Origin: a candidate division WWE3 bacterium RAAC2_WWE3_1
GTDB lineage: Bacteria > Patescibacteriota > WWE3 > UBA101185 > UBA10185
Assembly (NCBI GenBank): GCA_000503835.1
Contig: CP006914.1
Span: 239,341 to 303,340 of the forward strand
DNA: 64,000 nt
Reading direction: 5' to 3'
Shown here piece by piece: positions 12,601-57,017 of this stretch. Numbering within the stretch: position 1 is the stretch's first letter; each line of letters opens with the position of its first letter. Below the pieces are notes generated by a model. It was not told the origin of the DNA, did no database searches, and worked only from the letters and a program-made list of their open reading frames with translations. The position numbers were made by a program, and so were the translations under genes.

Positions 12601-15600
12601 GTTAACCGTCACACCTCCGGCGGTGGTGAAATATCCACCCACATACAGGTTTCCGTTATATACTGCGAGAGTCTGGACTGTGATGCCTACACCTGTAGTC
12701 TGTCCGATATTAGAAAACTGATTCGTCTGGTCATTGTATTTTGCGATACGGTTAACCGTCACACCCCCCGCTGTGGTAAAACCTCCCCCCACATACAGAT
12801 TCTCGTTATATACTGCGAAAGCGTTGACGGTGCTATTCACCCCCGTTGTCTGTCCGATATTAGAAAACTGATTCGTCTGGTCATTGTATTTTGCAATGTA
12901 GTTAACACTTACTCCCCCAGCCGTGGCAAAAGTTCCACCCACATACAGGTTTCCGTTATATACTGTAAGAGCGTTGATGTTACCACTTACCCCCGTTGTC
13001 TGTCCTATATTTGAAAACTGATTCGTCTGGTCGTTGTATTTTGCTATGTAGTTAACACTTACTCCTCCCGCTGTGGTAAATTGACCTCCGACATACAAGT
13101 TTCCGTTATACACAGCGAAAGCCTCGGCAGGCGCTGACACCCCAGTTCCCTGCCCAATACTAGAAAAAGCTTCCGAAGCACTATCATTCACCACAAACTT
13201 AGCCTTCCCGTCCGTCTTATCCAGAAAAAGCTGATAATCCCCCTTGTCAATAACACCCATATTACCGGGCGCTGAGGTAGAAAAACCATTATCCACAGAA
13301 ACCCAAGCTGAAACTGCAATGGATGACGTTGGGGAAATATATGAACTGCTGCTTGTAGTCACAAAATCATTATTCCCGTCAAAGGAAACACCCGATCCGT
13401 ATCTTCCGGGCGCAAATTCTGCGCCTTCGTTTAGGGTTCCCGTGGCACCGTTTCCGCTCACGTCATTTGTAGTAGTTCCTGAGCCTTCTTCAAATTTATA
13501 ATACAGATTTGATGGGGGGGACAGTTCGGCTAAGTTATATATTTCGTCATCGGTTAGTGCTGTATTGTATGTTCTGAAGTCGTCAAGACGGCCTTTGAAA
13601 TTCTCTCCGGAACCTCCGGCCCATTGAGAACCGTAGGTTTTACCCATGTAAAGCGGGGAGGATGATGCTGAAAGTGTAAATGATGACGTGTTTGTTGTGG
13701 TGTTTTCAAGGACACCGTTTATATACATTTTAAGTGTTTTTCCGTCAAAGGTTCCTGTAAGGTGGTACCAGGTGTTTGCCGTGAATGATGCTGTGGTTGA
13801 CGACACAGTTTTAGTGTTGGAGGTGCCGTATTTCGCGATGTAGTTAACACTCACACTTCCAGCTGTGGTAAAGTTTCCACCCACATACAGATTCCCGTTA
13901 TATACTGCAAAAGCGTAGACGGTGCTATTTACCCCCGTTGTCTGTCCAATATTCGAAAACTGATTCGTCTGATCATTGTACTTTGCAATGTAGTTAACAC
14001 TCACACCCCCTGCCGTGGTTAAGTTTCCCCCCACATACAAGTTTCCGTTATACATAGCAAGAGAGTCGACTTCGGTATCTACCCCTGTTGTCTGTCCTAT
14101 ATTAGAAAACTGATTCGTCTGGTCATTGTATTTTGCAATGTAGTTAACACTAACACCTCCTGCCGTGGTAAAGTACCCCCCTACATACAAGTTTCCGTTG
14201 TACACAGTCATGTCGAGAACCATACCATCAACCCCTGTTGTCTGTCCAATATTCGAAAACTGATTCGTCTGGTCATTGTATTTTGCAATGTAGTTAACCG
14301 TCACACCTCCCGCTGTGGAAAATATTCCGCCCACATACAAGTTTCCGTTATATACTGCAAAAGCGTAGACTTCGCCAGCTACCCCTGTTGTCTGTCCTAT
14401 GTTAGAAAACTGATTCGTCTGGTCATTGTATTTTGCAATGTAGTTAACACTAACACCTCCTGCCGTGGTAAAGTACCCCCCTACATACAAGTTTCCGTTA
14501 TATACTGCCAAAGCGCTGACGAAGTTATCTACACCCGTACCCTGTCCTATATTAGAAAAAGCCTTAGCAACGTTGTCATTAACAACCCATTTAGCTTTCC
14601 CGTCTGTTTTATCCATGTAAAACTGGTAATCGCCTTTATCAACAACTCCCATATTAGAAGGAGACGATGTGGAGAAGCCGTCGGTCATTTTTACCCATCC
14701 GGATACTGTGACCTGGGAAGTGGGAGCGAGTGTCGGATTAGAACCCGCTGTTACGTAGTCATCGACGCCGTCAAGAGAAGTTGCGTTAACATACTTACCT
14801 TCGTTCCACGCGGCACTGTTAACAAGTGTTGCCGTGTTGGAATTTCCCGAATAGTCGGCTGATGTTGTACCTGTACCTTCGTCCATCTTCCAATAGCCTG
14901 TTAAACCATCCGACACAAAATTAGTTGAATCATTTCCGAACGCAGCCGACGTTCCGTGCAAAGTGGGGGAGTACTTTATGTTATCGGACCTTATTTCGAC
15001 GAGCGTTCTTTCTTTGGCGTATATTTTGAATTCATCGATGTACCCGTCAAAATTTGAACCGCTGGAACCCGCCCCTATGTTAAGTGTATTTGTTTCGGTA
15101 GCGGGAGATCCGTCACCATTAATGCTGGTTCCTTTTAAAACTCCGTCAACATATATTGATATTTCATCATCAGAATCGTTTGTGTACGCCAGGCTAATCA
15201 AGTGCCATTGATTAAGATTTAACGCGTCATCCACAGTAAGCGTTGCATCAGTTGTTCCGAGGTCTATTTTCGCCGAAAGGTCAACAACCTGATCGTTACT
15301 TCCTGCCGCAAGTCCGAGATAGTTGTTTGCCCCCTTAGAAAATATTTTTCCTGTGTTTGACCCGCCTAGTGTGTTTGCCCGCACCCACATTTGAATCGTG
15401 AAGCCACTGTTTAGTTTTTTTCCAAAGTTGATAGGTTCGTTGTCAGTGACACCTACCACATCGTCAGATCCGTCGAAAACAAGACATCTGCCGCTTACAC
15501 AATATTCATCTGCGGATTGCCAGGAAGGCATGGTAATGTCACTGACAGATAGTGTTTTTAACGATAGAATCGAAGATGAGTAAATATCATTGTTATTAGT

Positions 15601-17982
15601 TGTTGCTGTAACATCGATTGTTTGAGATGAAGATGGGGCGCTGAACGCCGAGGAGCGTGCTCTGTTTGAAGGGGTGACTGTCGTATTAGCAATATCCGTA
15701 GGTGTCCCATTAGGGTCTATTTGGAGTCTTAAAGAAGATGAACTTGAATTAGCACCATTCACTTCATGATAGTATGCGGCCGATTGTGAGTATATTTCTG
15801 CGGGGTCAAAAAGAGTATCAAAGTTTTGAGGAGCGGAGCCCGAGGATAAGAGTGTATTAGCCAGTAGATATTGATTCTCGAGTTTTGTTACACCGGTAGT
15901 ACTTGTTTGGTCAACGATTATCTTTGCGGAGTAAATATCGTAGGTGCCGTTTGTGGTTCCTCCCGATGCAACGAGTCTATAATTTTTACCTGTCGCCGGT
16001 GTAAAAGAAACACGAACTCTTGTTGAGGATGTTGCAGTTCCGGAGGAAACCAATGTTGCTTTATCTGTCCATCCAGCAAAAGACCCGTTATCTTCCTGCA
16101 ATATTATTGTCGCATTGATTGTCCATGTTAAAACTAATTTACCGTCGGCACCTGAACCCCCTGTTTTTGCGGTACCGTCACCCGATCCCCCTCCCCCTCC
16201 TCCGTTACCACTTGCAGGAGCGGATCCGTTGGCACCAGCTCCTCCACCGTCTCCGCCATGCCCGGCTCCCGCCGGAGTTGATGCAGTTGGGTATGTTGCA
16301 GTATCCCAAGTCTGAGGCCCTGAATATCCGTCACTAGCCGTGCCTGCTGAAGAACCCCCGTAACCTCCTGTACCGGTATTGTGGTTTCTACCTATCTCCC
16401 CCTGTCCTCCATTAAATTTTACATCCCCAACACTTGACGAGGCGGCACCACCAAGACCTCCCGCCGGCGGAGTGCCTGTTGAATTTGACCCAGGTAAGCC
16501 TCCCATCGCCATTACACTTGAAGTATTGATAAAATAGGTGTGTCCACCAGATTGTCCCGCTCCGCTTGTTCCCCCTGAGCCTCCCGCTCCAACCACGAGC
16601 GTATGTGGGCTACCGGGCGTTACCGCCTGGGCGTTTTTTTTAACGTAAGCGCCACCTCCGCCGCCTCCGCCGCCATCAGAAGTTGCGTTTTGGCCGCCTC
16701 CGCCTCCGCCGGCACCCCAGGCCTCAACCTGAACAGATTGAACACCGCTAGGAGCTGACCAGTTACTGCTGGTCGCAGTTGTGTACGACGCTGTTCCGCT
16801 TGCCCCTGATACTTTATATACAACCTCTGCAGAAAAAGTTTTCGTTCCATCCCAATTTCCTTCCGTATAATTCCAATACTTCGGAGCGTTAAGAGCAGCC
16901 GCAGTTGTATTGGATTTTGCCACCTCGTAATTTCCGAGCTCGATTTGAGTTTGTGTGGTTGTTAAAGCGCTTTTTCCTATATTTTGAAAGACCAGGATTC
17001 TTGCTGATTTAACCTGGGGAGTTGTTCCGTTTGCCAGATTTATATTATATTCAGTCGTTCCGGTTGGAGGTGTAAACGCTGTCGCACTCCTTTTTCTTGC
17101 AAAGGCGGTTTCGGTAACCGTAACCGTTGAGTCTTGTGTTGAGGTACCCGCACGCTCGAGTGCTACCGTTAAAGTTCCGGATGAAACCTGAGCGACAACC
17201 TCAAAGTAGTATGTGACCGTTCCGCTATATTTTGTTGTATCCAGTTGAACAAGAGAAGGATCGTCCCCTGTAGCCGTCGCGATGTGGTCAATAATATTTA
17301 TCTCCTGTCTTAATTTTTGATCCGGAACAGCCGGGTCTCCGAGTGCCGCATTGTTAGCGTTTGATGTTGAGTCATATGCCGTTCCTCCGTACCCCTCGTC
17401 AAATTTCAGATACATCGAAGGCGACGGTCCTATTTCTTCACTTCCCGCACTTGGAGCACCGCTCGGAGAAAGACTTGTTACCGAGGATACAGCCCCGTCT
17501 ATTGTTGAATGGGCTATTGGGTTTGAATAGTACATAAAGATACTATTTCCCCCGTTTGTGACGCTATCGACAACAACGTCGTATACGGTTGATGTAGTGT
17601 TGCATCCTGAAACAAGGGTATATTTTAAAAGCTTCCCTCCAACCGACGTGAAAATTGTGTCATCACAATCTGTCTGCATTTTTCCGTCAGTTATCAGTGC
17701 CTGGGTATTTACGGTTACGGATATTCTTCTCTCGGAAGAAATATCCGAAGTATGCGAAAAGCTAATCTCCTGCCTTTGGTTATATGAATCATCAAACCAG
17801 TCGGCTTTAACACGGGTTGCTCTTATAATTGAAAATATTGTTACGGGGATTAAAACGGCAAGAGTTACAAGGATAATTATTCTTCTTGATTTTTTGTTTT
17901 TAAATGCGGCGGCAACTGCCTCGCGCATCTTGTTTAGTATATGGATATTTGTTTTCAGGCGCAGTTTATTGATAGCTTCCAT
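9658..17982 (-). CDS. Giant cell-surface protein (2774 aa): N-terminal signal-anchor, multiple LamG/ConA-like lectin-fold modules, two arrays of SBBP-like beta-propeller repeats, Gly-rich segments
   Basis: Uninterrupted 8.3 kb ORF. N-terminal basic stretch plus TM (RRIIILVTLAVLIPVTIFSII). Repeated LamG-like cores (W.HL.GTFDG..LKIYVNGVL; LNQWHLISLAYTNDSDDEISIYVDGVL). About 16 copies of the 41-aa unit YNGNLYVGG.FTTAGGVSVNYIAKYNDQTNQFSNIGQTTGV, resembling the SBBP beta-propeller repeat. Runs of GGGGGGGG. Confidence 0.8.
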   Translation of the reverse strand: MEAINKLRLKTNIHILNKMREAVAAAFKNKKSRRIIILVTLAVLIPVTIFSIIRATRVKADWFDDSYNQRQEISFSHTSDISSERRISVTVNTQALITDGKMQTDCDDTIFTSVGGKLLKYTLVSGCNTTSTVYDVVVDSVTNGGNSIFMYYSNPIAHSTIDGAVSSVTSLSPSGAPSAGSEEIGPSPSMYLKFDEGYGGTAYDSTSNANNAALGDPAVPDQKLRQEINIIDHIATATGDDPSLVQLDTTKYSGTVTYYFEVVAQVSSGTLTVALERAGTSTQDSTVTVTETAFARKRSATAFTPPTGTTEYNINLANGTTPQVKSARILVFQNIGKSALTTTQTQIELGNYEVAKSNTTAAALNAPKYWNYTEGNWDGTKTFSAEVVYKVSGASGTASYTTATSSNWSAPSGVQSVQVEAWGAGGGGGGQNATSDGGGGGGGGAYVKKNAQAVTPGSPHTLVVGAGGSGGTSGAGQSGGHTYFINTSSVMAMGGLPGSNSTGTPPAGGLGGAASSSVGDVKFNGGQGEIGRNHNTGTGGYGGSSAGTASDGYSGPQTWDTATYPTASTPAGAGHGGDGGGAGANGSAPASGNGGGGGGSGDGTAKTGGSGADGKLVLTWTINATIILQEDNGSFAGWTDKATLVSSGTATSSTRVRVSFTPATGKNYRLVASGGTTNGTYDIYSAKIIVDQTSTTGVTKLENQYLLANTLLSSGSAPQNFDTLFDPAEIYSQSAAYYHEVNGANSSSSSLRLQIDPNGTPTDIANTTVTPSNRARSSAFSAPSSSQTIDVTATTNNNDIYSSSILSLKTLSVSDITMPSWQSADEYCVSGRCLVFDGSDDVVGVTDNEPINFGKKLNSGFTIQMWVRANTLGGSNTGKIFSKGANNYLGLAAGSNDQVVDLSAKIDLGTTDATLTVDDALNLNQWHLISLAYTNDSDDEISIYVDGVLKGTSINGDGSPATETNTLNIGAGSSGSNFDGYIDEFKIYAKERTLVEIRSDNIKYSPTLHGTSAAFGNDSTNFVSDGLTGYWKMDEGTGTTSADYSGNSNTATLVNSAAWNEGKYVNATSLDGVDDYVTAGSNPTLAPTSQVTVSGWVKMTDGFSTSSPSNMGVVDKGDYQFYMDKTDGKAKWVVNDNVAKAFSNIGQGTGVDNFVSALAVYNGNLYVGGYFTTAGGVSVNYIAKYNDQTNQFSNIGQTTGVAGEVYAFAVYNGNLYVGGIFSTAGGVTVNYIAKYNDQTNQFSNIGQTTGVDGMVLDMTVYNGNLYVGGYFTTAGGVSVNYIAKYNDQTNQFSNIGQTTGVDTEVDSLAMYNGNLYVGGNLTTAGGVSVNYIAKYNDQTNQFSNIGQTTGVNSTVYAFAVYNGNLYVGGNFTTAGSVSVNYIAKYGTSNTKTVSSTTASFTANTWYHLTGTFDGKTLKMYINGVLENTTTNTSSFTLSASSSPLYMGKTYGSQWAGGSGENFKGRLDDFRTYNTALTDDEIYNLAELSPPSNLYYKFEEGSGTTTNDVSGNGATGTLNEGAEFAPGRYGSGVSFDGNNDFVTTSSSSYISPTSSIAVSAWVSVDNGFSTSAPGNMGVIDKGDYQLFLDKTDGKAKFVVNDSASEAFSSIGQGTGVSAPAEAFAVYNGNLYVGGQFTTAGGVSVNYIAKYNDQTNQFSNIGQTTGVSGNINALTVYNGNLYVGGTFATAGGVSVNYIAKYNDQTNQFSNIGQTTGVNSTVNAFAVYNENLYVGGGFTTAGGVTVNRIAKYNDQTNQFSNIGQTTGVGITVQTLAVYNGNLYVGGYFTTAGGVTVNYIAKYNDQTNTFSNIGQTTGVNSYVQTLAVYNGNLYVGGDLTTAGGISVNKIAKYNDSTNTFSNIGQTTGVDSTVNAFAVYNGSLYAGGYFITAGGVSVNYIAKYNDQTNQFSNIGQTTGVDSTVNAFAVYNGNLYVGGAFTTAGGVTVNQIAKYGTSKLKSVASTTSSWTPNTWYHLAGTFDGTNLKIYVNGVLENTTTNGSAYTIDSAGAPLLIGKTYGSQWVGGSGEIFKGRIDDVKIYNYPAEITQITKDLDAQYPSPDPTLGTALGFWRFDEGGGTTIYDRTGNSRNLTLTASPPTAVSYTVTGKFNKAFYPNGTNYASRDDNAFIFNAAGFALNLWFKSSSSSNPSGTEYVLGRGGNTTAGYALYFNTAGNLLFGVDDDTTWGPDTSASSPTDLYDGLWHNATAVKKDNTQIDLYIDGLLVDSKTTIAASGTVNGDNTLVIGGRGEDYSSKFNGSIDEVSIYNFDIGSDRAKLFLNDSKTSQWGAVSTDSSGNPSNSYDREFCVPGDTATCEAPFGHWKFDEGSWINDDSTLSVLDSSVNQYNLRSGPAGSGPTGGQIGKFGYAGYFDGGDDYLQEPTNADLSINTEDFSISTWIYKAPPVSTDVVIAKKATTTATDPGYYLFISSAGLPRFYISDGTDQFTLSDAASVPSNQWVHLEVVVDRDSTANTDIYVNGIKRGAAQSGTLTAVGDLNPVTASDFTVGAQPAGNTNFEGKIDNIVMYKYARTPQQINWEYNRGDATYNYKLNECSGNTANNSAQNSNGTAVGTNLTIYPQTLGNTTVGTCVGSANEMWFGGESGKFNGSLDFDGTDDYLASSNTVLLTSATSQPYNNFSFGAWVNPATAATSKTIIQKNNEFRLTTDSSNKPQCEIYAGAWQTAAVSSTALSTSTWSHVFCTYDGSNIKIYVNGVNTGTQAEADNVMSTSATALNIGRDSAGSGYFDGKIDEVSIHTMAFNDTLVKLLYNENSALRFGE
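12080..13150. repeat. Tandem ~123-bp DNA repeats (about 9 copies, high identity) encoding the first SBBP-like beta-propeller array of the giant protein
   Basis: Recurring blocks visible directly, for example tcccgttatatactgcgaaagcgttgacggtgctat and ccccgttgtctgtccgatattagaaaactgattcgtctggtcattgtattttgcaatgtagttaac. They generate spurious plus-strand ORFs with the repeated peptide PPAVVK.PPTYKFPLYTAKALTVLSTPVVCPI. Confidence 0.8.
13780..14540. repeat. Second tandem array of ~123-bp repeats (about 6 copies) encoding the second SBBP-like propeller block
   Basis: Same repeat unit as 12080-13150, separated from it by a LamG-type module. The copies are near-identical. Confidence 0.8.
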
Positions 17983-18010: not shown

Positions 18011-18406
18011 TTAGTTGCTAGGGTTTTTGGGAATAAATAAGTTTAGTTCTTTAACAGGTGTAAAGTGTTTTGTGTCCATCGTCCAAAGAAGATTTTTGTT
18101 AATTATTGCGGTAGCCGCAATAAGTGCGTCCGCTATACCAAGCCTTGTTTTTAGCCCGTATTTAATTATAAGATTGAAGGCTAGGAGCGAGATCTCTTTA
18201 TTTATTTCAACAATATCCATGCTGTCGATAAAATTCAGGTTGATTCTTCTTTCTTTACGGTCTCTTGATCCCAGAACAATTTCGCAGGCCGCTATTCTCG
18301 AAATTTGTACCGAATCTATTTGTTTATGGAAAGTGGAAACAACCTTACTATTGTGTTTCTGCATCTCAATAAGTACGGAAGTATCGATGAGAGTTTTAAT
18401 CGCCAT
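18011..18406 (-). CDS. vapC: PIN-domain ribonuclease toxin (VapC-type), 131 aa
   Basis: N-terminal LIDTSVLIE motif with the conserved Asp. Later acidic positions in GIADALIAATA and WTMDTKHF fit the PIN fold. It overlaps the upstream antitoxin gene by 11 nt. Confidence 0.75.
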   Translation of the reverse strand: MAIKTLIDTSVLIEMQKHNSKVVSTFHKQIDSVQISRIAACEIVLGSRDRKERRINLNFIDSMDIVEINKEISLLAFNLIIKYGLKTRLGIADALIAATAIINKNLLWTMDTKHFTPVKELNLFIPKNPSN

Positions 18407-18689
18407 ACCAAGAGTCTTTTCTCAACTTTGCGGCTATTGTAGAGCTAGATTTGCCCTCCCAATCTTTTCTATTTTTGTACATGCCAATAAAGTCAGAAAT
18501 AGCGTCTCTTTTGTCTAGTGAGGATTTCTTAACACGTCTCTTTTTATACTCATACGTATCGGGGTCAATTATTACTACCTGTTCCTTTCCGTTTTTTGTA
18601 ATATAAATGGGATTGAGTTTAGACATCCCCAAATACATAGAAAGGTTGTGGTGAAAGTCTCTAAGACTCACGTGCTTAGTTTTTTTCAT
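18396..18689 (-). CDS. Phd/YefM-type antitoxin, 97 aa, partner of VapC
   Basis: VSLRDFHHNLSMYL ... PIYITKNGKEQVVIIDPDTYEYKK resembles the Phd/YefM N-terminal fold. Gene order antitoxin-then-toxin with overlap. Confidence 0.6.
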   Translation of the reverse strand: MKKTKHVSLRDFHHNLSMYLGMSKLNPIYITKNGKEQVVIIDPDTYEYKKRRVKKSSLDKRDAISDFIGMYKNRKDWEGKSSSTIAAKLRKDSWYGD

Positions 18690-18797
18690 ACTTTCAATAT
18701 ATCAAGTGTTTGACAATTTGTCTAACAAAAATGTCTAATTTTATTAGATTTCGGGTGATTAGGCTTATGGGTATTCCACGGGGAATTTTGACTCCGT

Positions 18798-18874
18798 CAA
18801 AGCAATTCCACTCGCTTCGCTCGCAGAATTGTTTATCTCAAAGCAATTCCACTCGCTTCGCTCGCAGAATTGTC
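18798..18874. repeat. Two perfect 36-bp direct repeats (caaagcaattccactcgcttcgctcgcagaattgt) separated by 5 bp, between the TA module and tRNA-Glu
   Basis: 100% identical copies at 18798-18833 and 18839-18874, read directly from the sequence. Confidence 0.9.
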
Positions 18875-18960
18875 GAACACAACTAAAGTTAGTGCGTTCC
18901 CGAGCGAGAATCACACGAACAGAACCTTCACCTCGCGTTGCTCGATGAAGAACCTGTTCA

Positions 18961-19035
18961 TGGTGACCCCACGGGGAATCGAACCCCGGTTGCCGGGATG
19001 AAAACCCGGCGTCCTAACCGTTAGACGATGGGGCC
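18961..19035 (-). tRNA. tRNA-Glu (anticodon TTC), CCA encoded
   Basis: Reverse complement GGCCCCATCGTCTAACGGTTAGGACGCCGGGTTTTCATCCCGGCAACCGGGGTTCGATTCCCCGTGGGGTCACCA. Anticodon stem CCGGG/CCCGG, loop TTTTCAT (U33, TTC, A37). T-loop TTCGATT. 7-bp acceptor stem. Confidence 0.85.
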
Positions 19036-19205
19036 AAGCGTCTGAAGTGGCTTGTGACCACTGTAACAACAAGGCACAACGGTATATTATCAACAAATCT
19101 ACCTATTTGGCAACAAAACGTCGTCCGTCCGGCGCCAATTTCGTTAAAATCTTGAACAACCCCAAACCGCCCTACCAATATAAAATAGTGGTAAAATAAG
19201 TCGAA

Positions 19206-20627
19206 ATGGCCATACTAACCACCATTTACCTATACATTTACACGTTTTTTGCCGCTCTTTTACCCGGTGTAAGTTACAACGAGGGGATGTTGGGGCAGCC
19301 TCAAACCTTTTTGCCGAGTCAGGTAGTACAGCAGACAGATAAGGCCGTAAGCTCCCTCCTTTATAGAGGCCTTTTTAAATACGATATATATGGTGCGACT
19401 GTCCCCGATTTGGCCGAAACCTGGCAGGTATCTGATGACGGTCTTGTTTATACCATAAGACTTAAAGACAACCAGCTTTGGACCAACGGCAGAAAAATAA
19501 ACTCTGACGACCTTATTTACACCTCGTTTAAGGTCACGGATTTGTCAGGTGTGGCAACAGATAAGGTGGATGATATGACCGTGCGATACACACTCCCAAA
19601 TAAATACTCCCCTTTTTTGAGCCTGTTAACCGTGGGTATAATGCCCCGGGATTCCGAGGAGAATAATGACCCTCTTCATCCCGTAACAAGCGGAGACTTC
19701 AGGGTCGCCAGAATTGAGAAATCAGGCAAATACATAAGACAAATCACACTCGTTTCACCCAACAACAAGTACGATATTCAAAAAATAAGCTTTAGATACT
19801 ACACGAATGAGGACGAAATTTTAACTGCGGCCAAGCTGGGCGAGATCAACGGCTATCTTTTTTCGGAAAAAAAAGCCCCGGAGAATTTTTATAATTACGA
19901 ATTCCCGGTGCAGGGTATTTATTACGCACTGTTTTTTAATATTAGAAACGAAAAGCTTTCGGATGTCGCTGTGAGACAGAAGTTGGAAAAGGTAATACCG
20001 CTGGAAAGCTTTACGGCAGGTCGGGGCATAAGGGTCCAGGGTCCTGTGAGCCGAAGTGTTTTTACTGACCTGGAGCTTGAATTTGACCGCTACGACCCTC
20101 TTTTTTCTGAGGATCTTGGCGATATGAGCCTGACAATAAGAGTCCCTGACATTGAAGAACATGTAATTATGGCTAAACAGATAGCTTCGGTTTGGAGGGA
20201 AAAGCTGGATATAGAAGTAAAGGTCGAGCCTATCGCCGCAAATGATATTGTTCCTAGAATTATAGAACCGCGGGATTTTGAGGTTTTGTTATTCGGGCAG
20301 GAAGTAGGTCGCGACCCCGACAGGTACGTGTTATGGCACTCCGCGCAAAAAAACCCTCCCGGATTGAATTTTTCAGGATTCGACCAGGTCAGGGCCGACA
20401 GAGCTTTGGAGGAAGGCAGGAATGAGTTAGATAATGAGAAAAGGATCGTTCACTACAATGAATTTCAAAAGGTTGTTGTGGATCAGGTTCCCGCAGTCTT
20501 TTTGTATCATCCGTTTACCAACTTTTACGTTTCAAAGTATATAGAGGGGGTGGGGGAGAAGTATACCTTTACCTACGCTGACAGGTTTCTGGATTTTGAG
20601 AATTGGAGGTATGTGAGGACGAATTAG
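19206..20627 (+). CDS. ABC transporter substrate-binding protein, family 5 (peptide/nickel/oligosaccharide-binding, DppA/OppA-like)
   Basis: 473 aa with an N-terminal hydrophobic anchor. The overall size and C-terminal region (VVDQVPAVFLYHPFTNFYVSKYIEG) resemble SBP_bac_5 proteins. No cognate permease is adjacent, so the assignment is moderate. Confidence 0.45.
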   Translation: MAILTTIYLYIYTFFAALLPGVSYNEGMLGQPQTFLPSQVVQQTDKAVSSLLYRGLFKYDIYGATVPDLAETWQVSDDGLVYTIRLKDNQLWTNGRKINSDDLIYTSFKVTDLSGVATDKVDDMTVRYTLPNKYSPFLSLLTVGIMPRDSEENNDPLHPVTSGDFRVARIEKSGKYIRQITLVSPNNKYDIQKISFRYYTNEDEILTAAKLGEINGYLFSEKKAPENFYNYEFPVQGIYYALFFNIRNEKLSDVAVRQKLEKVIPLESFTAGRGIRVQGPVSRSVFTDLELEFDRYDPLFSEDLGDMSLTIRVPDIEEHVIMAKQIASVWREKLDIEVKVEPIAANDIVPRIIEPRDFEVLLFGQEVGRDPDRYVLWHSAQKNPPGLNFSGFDQVRADRALEEGRNELDNEKRIVHYNEFQKVVVDQVPAVFLYHPFTNFYVSKYIEGVGEKYTFTYADRFLDFENWRYVRTN

Positions 20628-20701
20628 AGTCGGCAGTTCTGAGTAAGGTGGGTTCTTTGGGGTTTTCTTGGGCGATGTTATAATCTTTTTGGTTGTATTG
20701 T

Positions 20702-20778
20702 GGTGGTGTGTGCCGAACGGCTTAGGCGCTGCCCTGTGGAGGCAGTTTTAGCGGGTTCGACTCCCGTACACCACCCCA
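20702..20778 (+). tRNA. tRNA-His (anticodon GTG) with extra 5' G(-1), CCA encoded
   Basis: G-1 plus GTGGTGT acceptor pairing with ACACCAC, discriminator C, CCA. Anticodon stem CTGCC/GGCAG, loop CTGTGGA (U33, GTG, G37). T-arm GCGGGTTCGACTCCCGT. Confidence 0.85.
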
Positions 20779-20860
20779 TAAATTAAGGTTGTTACATCAA
20801 CATTTCTTCCTATACCCCTAATGTATAATTGAACCCACTTGTTACTGCTATACTATTTTT

Positions 20861-21445
20861 ATGAACAAAGACTTACTTATCATTGCAGACCAGCTTCAAA
20901 GAGATGCTTATTCTATAGTAGAAAAACTACAGTTAGAAAGTGTTTTAGGTGAACGCTTTGTAGTAAAAGTTGTGGGGAGTACTGTTTATAACCTTATGAC
21001 CTGGAGGGACTTGGATTTTGACCTTGTTACACCCGTTCTACCGGATAATAAAGTATATTTTACCTTAGTAGAATATTTATTTGCCTTGTCTGAAGTTAAA
21101 AAGGTTACTTTAGCGGATAACAGAAACCTGGAAGAACAGGATAGACCAAAAAGTATGTATATTGGACTTCAATATGTGGATTCAAAAAAAGAGATATGGA
21201 AACTGGATATACGTTTATTATCAAAAGAAGATGTTGTTACAGATAGAGTTGCAGATTTGATACAGGAAAAGTTAACTGAAAAGTTTAGGCACTACATTTT
21301 GGAAATTAAAACTCAAGTACATAATAATCCTAAGTATCATAAAAGTTTTTCAAGTGTTGATATCTATAATGCAGTACTTTCAAATAGTGTCAAAGATTTG
21401 GGAGGTTTTGAGTCTTATTTAAAAACATTGGGCAAATCTTTTTGA
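20861..21445 (+). CDS. Nucleotidyltransferase-fold protein (pol beta superfamily; MNT/ANT-like), 194 aa
   Basis: Minimal NTase motif hG[GS]...DhDh: VVKVVGSTVYNLMTWRDLDFDLVTP. The substrate is unknown. Confidence 0.5.
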   Translation: MNKDLLIIADQLQRDAYSIVEKLQLESVLGERFVVKVVGSTVYNLMTWRDLDFDLVTPVLPDNKVYFTLVEYLFALSEVKKVTLADNRNLEEQDRPKSMYIGLQYVDSKKEIWKLDIRLLSKEDVVTDRVADLIQEKLTEKFRHYILEIKTQVHNNPKYHKSFSSVDIYNAVLSNSVKDLGGFESYLKTLGKSF

Positions 21446-21583
21446 ATACTAATAGTTCTTTTACTATTTGGTTCAAGTTAGCACCCATTACCGACCCCAT
21501 AAATTAAGGTTGGTATCACAACATAAATTCCAGTAACCCTAACGTAGTATTGAACCGTTGATTTAACTCAAAGGAAACTACTT

Positions 21584-22066
21584 ATGTATAATAAGTGTAT
21601 GAAAATACGAAAAGCCACAAAAAAGGATATCCCAAAAATTAGAAGGGGATTGCTAGAATCGTGGCTGTCTCATGTGGACAATGAGCCAATGTACTATAAC
21701 CGCGACCGGGTAGAAAAATCAGACATTGATACTTATTATACTAACGCCATGGACAGTGTTGATTCTTTTGTTCTTATTATTGAAGAAAATGGAAAATTTA
21801 TTGGATTTGGAAAGGCTGATATACAAAAGATAGAACCTTGGTATAAGGAGCAAAAAGTTCTGTATATAGATGATATTTACATCGAAAAAGAATTCAGAAA
21901 AAAAGGCTGTGCCAAAACTCTTTTACAGGAGTTTGAGAAGATGGCAAAAACTAGGGATATAAAATGGATTAAAGCACGAGTGTATTCTTTTAATGAGCCG
22001 GCGAAAAAACTAAATGCCTCATTTGGGTTTTATCCTTTATATTCAGAGTATTTTAAGATTATTTAG
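21584..22066 (+). CDS. GNAT family N-acetyltransferase, 160 aa
   Basis: Acetyl-CoA binding-type motif region LYIDDIYIEKEFRKKGCAKTLLQEFEKMA (Q/RxxGxG/A-like) and a C-terminal NASFGF. Confidence 0.7.
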   Translation: MYNKCMKIRKATKKDIPKIRRGLLESWLSHVDNEPMYYNRDRVEKSDIDTYYTNAMDSVDSFVLIIEENGKFIGFGKADIQKIEPWYKEQKVLYIDDIYIEKEFRKKGCAKTLLQEFEKMAKTRDIKWIKARVYSFNEPAKKLNASFGFYPLYSEYFKII

Positions 22067-22258
22067 ATATCACTTTTTAAGATTAAGAATGCGAGAATGC
22101 CGGTTGTAACCTAAACAACAATGTTAATTCTTGCACTATTTGGTTCATTTTATCGGTTATTACCAACCCCATTTTTCGATGTTGTTACTACAACATATTT
22201 CTCGTTACCCCCAATATTTAATCGAACCAGTACACGCTCAACTGCTATAATTAAGTAT

Positions 22259-22909
22259 ATGAATAAAAAAGAGCAGTGGTGGGACACAAAGCACGATAGG
22301 TATGCTTCAGAGGACTGGATAAGCAAACCGACTATATTCGCTCGATGGGTAATAGCATATCTACCAAAAAACGGAAGGTTACTCGATGTCGCAGCGGGGC
22401 ATGGCCAAGACAGCGTGTATTTTGCTAGACAAGGGTTTTCGGTGATCGCTACCGACTTTTCTGAAAAAGCGATTCAATATATTAATAAAAACATTACCCC
22501 TGATATCAAAGGTAAGATTACTACACAAAAGGTAGATTTATCAAAGAAACTGCCTTTTGAAGATAATATGTTTGATATTGTATACGGGCATCTTGCCGTC
22601 CACTATTTTACTAACAAGATTACAGATAAGGTATTTAAGGAATTAAAAAGAATACTTAAACCCGGAGGAATAATTGCGTTATTAGTAAATTCTACAAAAG
22701 ATCCGGAGTATGAAACGGGAAGAAAAATCGAAGAGGATTACTTTGAATTATCACCGGGGGATTTTAAACATTTTTTCACTATTGATTATATGCGATTGAA
22801 ATCCAAAGGACTGGAAGAAGTTTTTATTGATGATAACGGCACTACTTATAAAGATAACGCAAAAGGCGTTTTTAACTTAATAAGGTATGTTGGTAAGAAA
22901 GTAAGCTAA
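22259..22909 (+). CDS. Class I SAM-dependent methyltransferase (about 216 aa)
   Basis: Motif I LLDVAAGHGQDSVYFARQGFSVIATDFSEKAI and a post-II region ILKPGGIIALLV. The ORF track starts at 22121, but the upstream 46 aa look non-coding; the first plausible start is MNKKEQWW at 22259. Confidence 0.65.
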   Translation: MNKKEQWWDTKHDRYASEDWISKPTIFARWVIAYLPKNGRLLDVAAGHGQDSVYFARQGFSVIATDFSEKAIQYINKNITPDIKGKITTQKVDLSKKLPFEDNMFDIVYGHLAVHYFTNKITDKVFKELKRILKPGGIIALLVNSTKDPEYETGRKIEEDYFELSPGDFKHFFTIDYMRLKSKGLEEVFIDDNGTTYKDNAKGVFNLIRYVGKKVS

Positions 22910-23116
22910 GTTAGTATATTTGTGATTCAATTATTTATACGATCTTCAGTTACGCTATCGTCCAAAAAACCAAAGCGTGAGGCACTTCACAGATTAACGT
23001 AGCCTCCTACTCACAATTATGATAATTTATTTAAGACCGTTTCTCTACAAACTAAAAATTTGTCAACTATTAGATTAACCCAACACCACCCCATTTAAAC
23101 CGCCTCACCTAAAATT

Positions 23117-23455
23117 CTAAAATAGCGCAGTAGTTCTAACTTTTCTCCTAACTTCCTTATAATTCGGAATGGTCCTTTCTACCTCCGCCCAGAATCTCTT
23201 AGAGTGATTGAACTCTATCAGGTGACAAAGTTCGTGAACGATCACGTAGTCTCTCTGGTCTTTAGGCAATAACGCAACCTTGTAGTTAAAATTCAAATTT
23301 CTAGCTTTTGAACAACTGCCCCACTTAGTTTTTTGATTTCTAATCGCAACTTTCCTGTATTTAACACCGTATAAATGGGCAAAAAATTCGAGGCATTCAA
23401 GTATGACTTTCCTGGCAACCGTCTTATTTTCAAGATAGTGTCTTTTCGAGCGCAT
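23117..23455 (-). CDS. YgjP/DUF45-like (SprT/WLM-like) zinc metallohydrolase, 112 aa
   Basis: HExxH motif in YVIVHELCHLIEFNHSKRFW, matching the DUF45 consensus (vvHElaHl.e.nHs..Fw). Confidence 0.6.
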   Translation of the reverse strand: MRSKRHYLENKTVARKVILECLEFFAHLYGVKYRKVAIRNQKTKWGSCSKARNLNFNYKVALLPKDQRDYVIVHELCHLIEFNHSKRFWAEVERTIPNYKEVRRKVRTTALF

Positions 23456-56677: not shown

Positions 56678-56695
56678 TATAATTGGCGGGTTTGG

Positions 56696-56770
56696 GGACG
56701 TAGCTCAGTGGTAGAGCAACCGGCTCTTAACCGGTTTGTCGTGGGTTCAAATCCCACCGTCCTCACCATG
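56696..56770 (+). tRNA. tRNA-Lys (anticodon CTT), CCA encoded
   Basis: GGGGACG acceptor pairing with CGTCCTC. TAGCTCAGTGGTAGAGC D-arm. Anticodon stem ACCGG/CCGGT, loop CTCTTAA. T-arm GTGGGTTCAAATCCCAC. Confidence 0.85.
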
Positions 56771-56781
56771 AAAAATTTAAG

Positions 56782-56808
56782 GCTGCCGTAAGGTAGCCGT
56801 AATTTTTT
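56782..56808 (+). terminator. Terminator-like hairpin after tRNA-Lys (ggctgcc GTAA ggtagcc followed by taatttttt)
   Basis: 7-bp stem with one G-U pair, a GNRA-type loop, and a 6-T run. Confidence 0.4.
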
Positions 56809-57017
56809 GTAGATGAGGTGGGATGAGAATGCCGGACTGAGCGAAGGCGAAGGAGGCGGGGTCGACGGAATTCTCAGCAGAGAATTACCGGTGACCGAAT
56901 CCCTCCGTCCTCACCATGAAATTTTCCTGTACCACAAAAAATGTGAAGATTAGGAAGCTTGGATCTCGCCCTTCCTATTGATAAACGGTCAAATACTATA
57001 TAATCAGATTATAGAGA

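Follow-up and report, generated by a model that had tools for sequence, protein, structure and literature searches.

Here, we describe a 2.3-kb gene array at the 3' end of the tRNA-His gene of candidate division WWE3 bacterium RAAC2_WWE3_1 (contig CP006914.1, positions 239,341 to 303,340 of the forward strand). The whole 64,000-nt stretch that was analyzed is called the window, and positions are those of the window unless another locus is named. Upstream of tRNA-His lie tRNA-Glu and an SBP_bac_5 gene; downstream of it, three small enzyme genes are each enclosed by repeated arms. The GC content of this islet is 33.6%, against 45.1% and 43.2% in the 10-kb flanks. An earlier note on this DNA had taken the locus for one decayed or trans-mobilized islet. 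We lean, if slightly, towards reading 20779-23093 as a tandem array of three minimal cassettes without integrases, inserted successively at the tRNA-His 3' end and mobilized in trans.

Arms, junctions and cargo at tRNA-His

The end of tRNA-His recurs about 2.3 kb downstream, as the earlier note had observed: the 12-mer ACACCACCCCAT occurs at exactly two sites in 64 kb (20768 and 23083-23094), still two with one mismatch allowed, with an expectation of 0.13 and two or more occurrences in 0 of 100 shuffles. A 63-nt repeat is present in three copies (20773-20835; 21494-21556, 79% identity; 22166-22228, 71% identity), each just upstream of a gene, with start-to-start spacings of 721 and 672 bp. 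A profile built from the three copies (nhmmer; E values, 5e-16 to 1e-17) found no further match in 64 kb. The degenerate second copy, placed near 21496 by the earlier note, is real (79% identity over 63 nt; nhmmer E value, 1e-17), and the third (22166-22228) had been missed. The repeat had been put about 45 bp upstream of two gene starts; its position upstream of genes stands, with three copies, three genes and distances of 25-43 bp from repeat end to gene start.

A second shared arm precedes copies 2 and 3 (ACTATTTGGTTCA...TTACC[G/A]ACCCCA; exact 13-mer at 21463 and 22135), and it is here that the T-loop-like ggttcaagt pointed out earlier is located. In our notation, O is the core (ACCCCA), P the arm to its left and P' the 57 nt to its right; together, P-O-P' forms an attachment unit of about 120 bp. 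The P side loosely mimics a tRNA from T-loop to CCA (GGTTCAA...ACC-ACCCCA). P'1 contains a hairpin (GTTG-N6-CAAC) and ends in TTGAACC, an inverted T-loop-like motif, and the outer ends of P-O-P' are inverted T-loop-like motifs (TGGTTCA...TGAACCA) that close the minimum free energy fold in 5 of 5 junction or reconstructed units. In the unit at copy 2, imperfect inverted repeats surround an A/T-rich stretch (TACCGACC-CCATAAATTAA-GGTTGGTA). The distal 12-mer is preceded by a shortened, decayed P arm (ACTATTaGaTT...ACACCACCCCA), and no P' lies beyond this distal junction.

From left to right, with a slash marking each junction, the order is tRNA-His/P'1 - ORF1 - P/P'2 - ORF2 - P/P'3 - ORF3 - P(decayed)/flank (ORF, open reading frame; Table 1). 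Every junction lies directly after ACCCCA, i.e., at the CCA end of the tRNA, and tRNA-His acts as the chromosomal attachment site (the attB side of attL). The cassettes are 721, 672 and 922 bp long and carry one gene each. Every one of them consists of a left arm P', its own predicted -10 promoter, a single small enzyme gene and a right arm P (about 55-60 nt) that ends in ACCCCA; in cassette 1, the first nucleotides of the P arm already include the stop codon of ORF1.

The GNAT acetyltransferase and class I methyltransferase named in the earlier note were confirmed by Pfam. ORF1, named there as a nucleotidyltransferase, had no Pfam or NCBIfam match, and a sequence-profile search against the PDB was not significant (MNT family; E value, 0.59). 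Its AlphaFold model (predicted local distance difference test, 91.6) matched only Pol-beta-type nucleotidyltransferases in Foldseek (TUTase, Cid1, Pol beta and CdnC), and the family keeps the invariant residues G39, S40, D50, D52 and D116 (GS...DxD...D); the name is therefore correct at the level of the fold, which is Pol-beta-type as modeled. The 63 homologs of ORF1 (about 193 aa, without a Pfam or NCBIfam model) are restricted by their source names to the Candidate Phyla Radiation (CPR), namely WWE3, Shapirobacteria and Daviesbacteria. Those at 50-65% identity (L018-L021 and L028-29) lie away from tRNA-His, in ordinary contexts without P or P', and the gene family is therefore not tied to the cassette system. 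For ORF2, the longest ORF starts at 21584, and the likelier start is the ATG at 21599, 6 nt past a TATAAT (21587-21592). The best NCBIfam match of ORF3 was the MduS methyltransferase domain (104 bits against a cut-off of 380). For ORF2 and ORF3, all NCBIfam matches were far below threshold, with no aminoglycoside, streptothricin, other resistance or equivalog model near its cut-off, and the proposal that the genes are resistance cargo found no support in these models.

Nor does the repeat itself appear to serve as a promoter or leader, as had been suggested, because separate extended -10 boxes lie 10-30 nt downstream of it. These boxes (TGnTATAMT or, for the GNAT gene, TG plus TATAAT at 21585-21592) stand 6-7 nt before the ATG of each cassette gene; each cassette therefore probably has its own promoter for a leaderless mRNA. 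The extended -10 motif is likewise found before tRNA-His, tRNA-Arg, tRNA-Leu and a leaderless-looking NAGPA-domain gene (33179). Sites of the form TGnTATAAT occur at 20676, 33179, 54943 and 57615, one of them 7 nt before the GTG of the NAGPA gene (33195), which suggests promoters that work without a -35 element, and some leaderless mRNAs, in this organism. A generic scan for sigma-70 promoters and terminators gave no enrichment over shuffles.

Table 1. Positions of the array's parts, with the tRNA gene at its left and the gene that limits it at its right (HMM, hidden Markov model; SAM, S-adenosylmethionine)
Feature	Position	Strand	Evidence
Extended -10 promoter of tRNA-His, TGTTATAAT	20676-20684	+	Motif scan
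tRNA-His (GTG), intact, encoded CCA	20703..20778	+	ARAGORN; Rfam tRNA, 44.6 bits; G-1 at 20702
Core O1 (ACCCCA, last 6 nt of the tRNA); junction 1 (tRNA/P')	20773..20778	+	Junction table
P'1, left arm of cassette 1, 57 nt	20779..20835	+	Repeat family; nhmmer E 4e-17
Extended -10 box TGCTATACT, 6 nt before the ORF1 ATG	20846..20854	+	Motif scan
Cargo 1 (ORF1), 194-aa protein, predicted Pol-beta-type nucleotidyltransferase fold	20861..21445	+	AlphaFold; Foldseek
P arm of cassette 1 (TTTTGAATAC...TGGTTCAAGTTAGCACCCATTACCG) and core O2 (21494-21499)	21441..21499	+	P-arm HMM E 2e-15
P'2, left arm of cassette 2	21500..21556	+	79% identity to P'1; nhmmer E 1e-17
Cargo 2 (ORF2), GNAT N-acetyltransferase	21599..22066	+	Pfam Acetyltransf_1, E 2e-13
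P arm of cassette 2 and core O3 (22166-22171)	22115..22171	+	P-arm HMM E 2e-12; 13-mer ACTATTTGGTTCA
P'3, left arm of cassette 3; hairpin ATGTTGT-tact-ACAACAT	22172..22228	+	71% identity; nhmmer E 5e-16
Extended -10 box TGCTATAAT, 7 nt before the ATG at 22259	22243..22251	+	Motif scan
Cargo 3 (ORF3), class I SAM-dependent methyltransferase, 216 aa	22259..22909	+	Pfam Methyltransf_11/25, E 1e-18
Distal junction: decayed, shortened P arm (ACTATTAGATTAACCCAACACC) and core O4	23062..23094	+	12-mer; arm similarity
YgjP-like metallopeptidase, C-terminal half, 112 aa; outside the islet, its right limit	23117..23455	-	Pfam E 3e-36

Occupied and empty sites in other genomes

The closest relative, WWE3 RIFOXYB1_FULL_43_24 (loci L003-L007), has a flanking SBP protein 92% identical to that of the window and the same flanks (tRNA-Glu, SBP and tRNA-His on one side; YgjP-like fragment, CSD, DEAD helicase and BipA on the other). 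Nucleotide homology covers 18961-20835 (through P'), breaks, and resumes at 23137, 43 bp past the 12-mer; between the shared flanks lie 2.3 kb in the window and 5.8 kb of unrelated genes in RIFOXYB1. The flanks are 76-84% identical in nucleotides between genomes with different cargo. RIFOXYB1 has P' directly after tRNA-His, an internal P-O-P' (13996-14115), a weaker P-like site near 16770 and a distal end in ...CACTACCACCCCCA. Its cargo (L004, 11753-17231) comprises two radical-SAM enzymes (one of them SPASM), a 49-aa peptide, very Cys-rich coding stretches (CDCE..CQCQC) and Peptidase_MA_2-like proteins and, split over two or three cassettes, looks like a cluster of the ribosomally synthesized and post-translationally modified peptide (RiPP) type.

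Empty tRNA-His sites, raised by the earlier note as a check on mobility, were found in loci L024-26 (81% SBP identity), L012 (79%) and L022 (66%), where an intact tRNA-His is followed by unrelated sequence without P'. The 3' end of the L024 tRNA-His is identical to that of the window. At L008 (78% SBP identity), the tRNA-His site holds a different small element.

When one genome from each of 185,579 species was scanned with the P-arm sequence as an exact pattern, four matches emerged. Three of them lie 0.5-2.5 kb downstream of a tRNA-His that P' directly follows, and the cargo at these three differs (HIT protein, EamA transporter and radical-SAM genes). One is the RIFOXYB1 WWE3 relative itself (L014), with the radical-SAM cargo. 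The second, in a Patescibacteria metagenome-assembled genome (MAG; L016), is a 541-bp cassette that reads tRNA-His/P' - 124-aa HIT protein - P/flank. The third, in a MAG labeled Nomurabacteria (L013), reads tRNA-His/P' - 285-aa EamA-type transporter, antisense - P/flank; this MAG is assigned to a different CPR class, and either this assignment is imprecise or cassettes of the family occur in more than one class. The fourth match (L015; contig CAZQTZ010000026.1, a short stretch) reads 213-aa unknown protein - P/flank and comes from a bin labeled Bathyarchaeia, an archaeal label that is probably a binning error. P arms are nearly identical in L004, L015 and L016 despite three unrelated cargo genes, and P' is conserved after tRNA-His in L004, L013 and L016.

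Three junction types (tRNA/P', internal P/P' and distal P/non-P') make up the arrays of the window, L004, L013 and L016, and all of them break after ACCCCA; L015 and L027 contribute one P/non-P' junction each. The L027 junction locates the cassette boundary. On this 1.3-kb contig, an ORF1 homolog (83% identical) is followed by a homologous P arm and then by a different gene, without P'. Identity between the window and L027 is 80% (96/120) through ACCCCA (78.8% over the 3' end of the gene, 81.5% over the P arm) and 41% immediately after it. Because similarity collapses exactly there, O marks the boundary: each P arm belongs to the preceding gene and each P' to the following one, and exchange would take place at the equivalent of the tRNA CCA end. 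This is the pattern expected, at the sequence level, if attP (P-O-P') recombined repeatedly with attB (tRNA-O-flank) at one site. An attC-like crossover at the outer inverted repeat (GGTTCAA/TTGAACC) was considered and rejected, given the full P' half-site after the tRNA, the distal junctions without P' and the end of L027 similarity at ACCCCA.

The YgjP-like ORF beyond the array (23117-23455) retains the HExxH motif and matches only the C-terminal half of the domain (profile positions 110-205 of 207). The same gene is present in L003 and L004, with unchanged length and 84% nucleotide identity in the closest relative (L004), and rather than being newly truncated, it may be a gene stably maintained at half size.

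Two other tRNA genes in the window have notable 3' neighbors. Directly after the CCA end of tRNA-Lys (56694-56768), an element of about 150 nt (56769-56916) begins with a hairpin and T-run, continues with a GC-rich core (GAATGCCGGACTGAGCGAAGGCGAAGGAGGCGGGGTCGACGG...ACCGGTGACC) and finishes with a repeat of the terminal 20 nt or so of the tRNA (exact 12-mer CCGTCCTCACCA at 56905). Its fold is closed (-42.9 kcal/mol; z, -2.5), the outer helix pairing the 5' part with the tRNA-end copy, and it matched no Rfam family. The same GC-rich core follows tRNA-His in the 78% relative (L008, 11564-11713; L011, 2225-2335), where the last 22 nt of the element copy the tRNA-His 3' end exactly and the complementary 5' segment is altered accordingly. 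These elements suggest a second, unrelated family associated with tRNA 3' ends, or a tRNA-like small RNA. At tRNA-Glu (18961-19035, minus strand), exactly where homology between the window and RIFOXYB1 starts, the 3' side in the window (18011-18960) holds a low-GC (36%) PIN/PhdYefM toxin-antitoxin pair and a 2774-aa protein; the same place holds a B12 radical-SAM gene and HisRS in RIFOXYB1 and a 572-aa large serine recombinase in L022 (66%). The 3' side of tRNA-Glu may be a second variable insertion site.

Possible routes of cassette gain

If the cassettes are mobilized in trans, a circularized cassette would carry a P-O-P' attP of about 120 bp whose P side mimics the tRNA, and strand exchange at ACCCCA would be catalyzed by a recombinase whose gene lies outside the window, either in the same genome or on another element. 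Insertion would be a conservative site-specific recombination at the very 3' end of the tRNA-His gene, and a newcomer would enter at the intact tRNA and shift older cassettes distally to give tRNA/P'-g1-P/P'-g2-P/P'-g3-P/flank. The variable cargo, the empty sites, the drop in GC content and the recurrence of the same repeats at tRNA-His elsewhere agree with the earlier note in that the DNA is horizontally acquired, bounded by the tRNA terminus and probably trans-mobilized; they depart from it in that the locus is not one element with an internal relic but three tandem cassettes.

Several results weigh against this account. The catalyst is hypothetical, since no integrase or recombinase domain was found among the 39 proteins of the window (the earlier note had likewise seen no integrase left in the intervening DNA) and no recombinase among the called genes within about 10 kb of the relatives' arrays. 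The collections of viral contigs, phage records and plasmids yielded neither a free or extrachromosomal attP nor a helper element: viral contigs had 0 matches to the P and P' patterns, metagenome contigs matched the P' pattern only in the known relative, and blastn found the junction unit in none of the phage and plasmid records. Among the loci compared, no integrase-bearing relative carries P or P'. The family is carried by five or six genomes only, a small sample. Within the array, identity between arms is only 71-79%, with a decayed arm at the distal end, and the strict common core is only 6-7 bp. P'1 and the RIFOXYB1 P' are 75% identical, about the same as the surrounding orthologous DNA (76%), and the P'1 arm alone may have been inherited vertically. 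All 23 of the longest contigs that carry the exact ORF1 protein have the same neighborhood, with no sign of current mobility. Literature searches found no such cassettes described in CPR bacteria, for which, to our knowledge, very few mobile-element systems have been described at all.

The alternative that survives best, though we think it unlikely, is decay to cis-mobilizable elements (CIMEs): the units would be former integrase-bearing elements at tRNA-His that were cut down to att arms plus one gene, and the array would be an immobile fossil. Decay to att-flanked CIMEs without integrases, followed by accretion, is a documented route (PMC5704250), and tycheposon islands accumulate remnants and partial tRNAs (tycheposon preprint). 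The fixed neighborhood in the 23 long contigs, the degenerate arms with a shortened distal copy and the lack of a recombinase in the window all agree with it. It has more difficulty with the cassettes themselves, eight or more across five or six genomes, all without an integrase pseudogene or spare non-coding DNA. The arms abut intact single genes so closely that the ORF1 stop lies within a P arm and the predicted promoters stand 10-30 nt after P'; near-identical P arms accompany three unrelated cargos; and in L027 the nucleotidyltransferase gene and its P arm are kept as one unit in a second context. Independent decay would not yield the same minimal layout repeatedly.

CPR bacteria are thought to rely on DNA uptake. 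Natural transformation followed by homologous recombination could exchange the cargo as in the "minimal mobile elements" of Neisseria, with the conserved flanks (SBP-tRNA-His and YgjP/CSD) and P/P' as homology arms and with P/P' mainly an intergenic punctuation. We regard this as rather improbable. The 76-84% identity of the flanks between genomes with different cargo and the absence of a detected recombinase speak for it, and the near-identical P arms of L004, L015 and L016 could serve as substrates; arms within one array, at 71-79% identity, are a poor substrate for RecA. Homologous exchange gives no reason for all junctions to lie at one nucleotide position, the tRNA CCA end or its mimic, where the similarity of L027 and the window stops exactly. 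P' is not a native punctuation of the tRNA-His locus, because it is absent from the empty sites. The P arm also imitates the 3' half of a tRNA, which is typical of attP sites (Islander description, PMC4383910).

A function at the RNA level is very improbable. The units would act as tRNA-like 3' ends in a transcript led by tRNA-His and processed by RNase P/Z or the CCA enzyme, or as leaders that regulate the downstream genes. P-O does resemble the portion of a tRNA from T-loop to CCA, the outer inverted repeat (TGGTTCA/TGAACCA) closes the folded domain in all five units, the small P' hairpin shows a partial compensatory change in two copies, and the three genes of the window are co-oriented with the tRNA. 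Against this, the T-stem is not maintained, Rfam found only the tRNA and no other family, and ARAGORN called no tRNA-like gene at the units. The L013 cargo is antisense to the tRNA, and the predicted promoter downstream of the unit in each cassette would leave the unit outside that mRNA. Such a function would leave the empty sites, the variable cargo and the GC shift unexplained. Chance similarity, or simple local duplication of the region downstream of tRNA-His, can be set aside almost entirely: AT-rich intergenic DNA does yield many short spurious repeats, and most two-copy families look so, but the shuffles of the 12-mer, the nhmmer E values of the three copies and the presence of the same unit at the same tRNA in independent genomes do not fit chance, and duplication would not explain the different genes between the copies.

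Tandem insertion of minimal cassettes, mobilized in trans, is thus the reading that we carry forward. What the locus displays is a recurrent and precisely bounded insertion grammar at one tRNA gene, with cassettes that go down to a single gene and contain no recombinase. If they are mobilized in trans, they would form a minimal cassette system that is integron-like in logic and built on tRNA-type attP/attB recombination, and thousands of uncultured genomes could be searched with P-O-P' as a sequence model, both for accessory-gene slots and for the missing recombinase. Even as fossils, the cassettes would be a clean case of how an additive island grows at a tRNA of a streamlined genome. We tentatively raise a broader possibility, which we would not expect to hold in full: WWE3 and related Patescibacteria might possess a dedicated, independently evolved, integron-like platform for gene capture, with the tRNA-His 3' end as its attI and with minimal cassettes (an att site of about 120 bp that mimics the tRNA, a leaderless promoter and one or few genes) that a recombinase from another part of the genome or from a helper element would circularize and insert at ACCCCA. 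Such a platform would offer ultra-small genomes a compact, exchangeable slot for accessory genes.

Comparison with known systems

The islands at the ssrA (tmRNA) gene of Dehalococcoides are said to be separated by direct repeats of the 3' end of that gene; they are reportedly kilobase-scale and associated with their own recombinase genes. With the array they share the arrangement of several islands in tandem at one small-RNA gene of a streamlined genome (PMC3146451).

The tDNA islands of the Islander type share four properties with the array: insertion at the 3' end of an intact tRNA gene (here with foreign DNA from 20779), a copy of the tRNA terminus at the distal end (the 12-mer at 23083-23094), a foreign composition, and polymorphism in presence and content among relatives. 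In these islands and in tycheposons, as is proposed for the array, successive insertions at one tRNA push older material distally and leave partial tRNA copies in between. The tycheposon islands of Prochlorococcus target tRNAs, are additive and carry a tyrosine or large serine recombinase, usually together with a replication module (tycheposon preprint). The array has neither type of recombinase and no replication module, and its units are single genes (0.44-2.75 kb), whereas tDNA islands and tycheposons measure several kilobases or more and contain integration and replication modules. The identity between array and tRNA is also only 6-7 nt (ACCCCA), ending exactly at CCA, and the arms P and P' form a conserved family common to cassettes with unrelated cargo.

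CIMEs of the Streptococcus ICESt1/ICESt3 family resemble the array in their attL/attR-type flanks, their lack of integration and transfer genes and their tandem arrangement at one site, and their mobility depends on a recombinase from another element (PMC5704250). They are viewed as decay products of known integrative and conjugative or integrative and mobilizable elements, usually several kilobases long and located at fda, whereas the array targets a tRNA and no parent element is known for it. All of its units, unlike CIMEs, have the minimal layout arm-promoter-gene-arm, which is found again in several CPR genomes. A miniature inverted-repeat transposable element or other non-autonomous transposon was also considered and rejected: the units occur only at tRNA-His (three in the window, none elsewhere), and the flanking repeat is the tRNA end rather than a variable target-site duplication.

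Integrons, and clusters of two or more attC sites lacking integrases (CALINs), come close to the array in layout. Both have co-oriented cassettes, mostly of a single ORF, with imperfectly palindromic recombination sites of about 60-120 nt that form a homogeneous family beside unrelated cargo, and in both, new cassettes seem to enter proximally. The array differs in having no intI or attI in the window, its platform being a tRNA gene. Its boundary, ACCCCA, lies in the middle of the unit and not in a GTTRRRY core at the 3' edge, and by inspection the unit ends have no RYYYAAC/GTTRRRY pair. A full 57-nt half-site follows the tRNA, as expected for an exchange between attP and attB. Lastly, integron cassettes are mostly promoterless and are expressed from the platform, whereas each cassette of the array has its own promoter, as predicted from its sequence.

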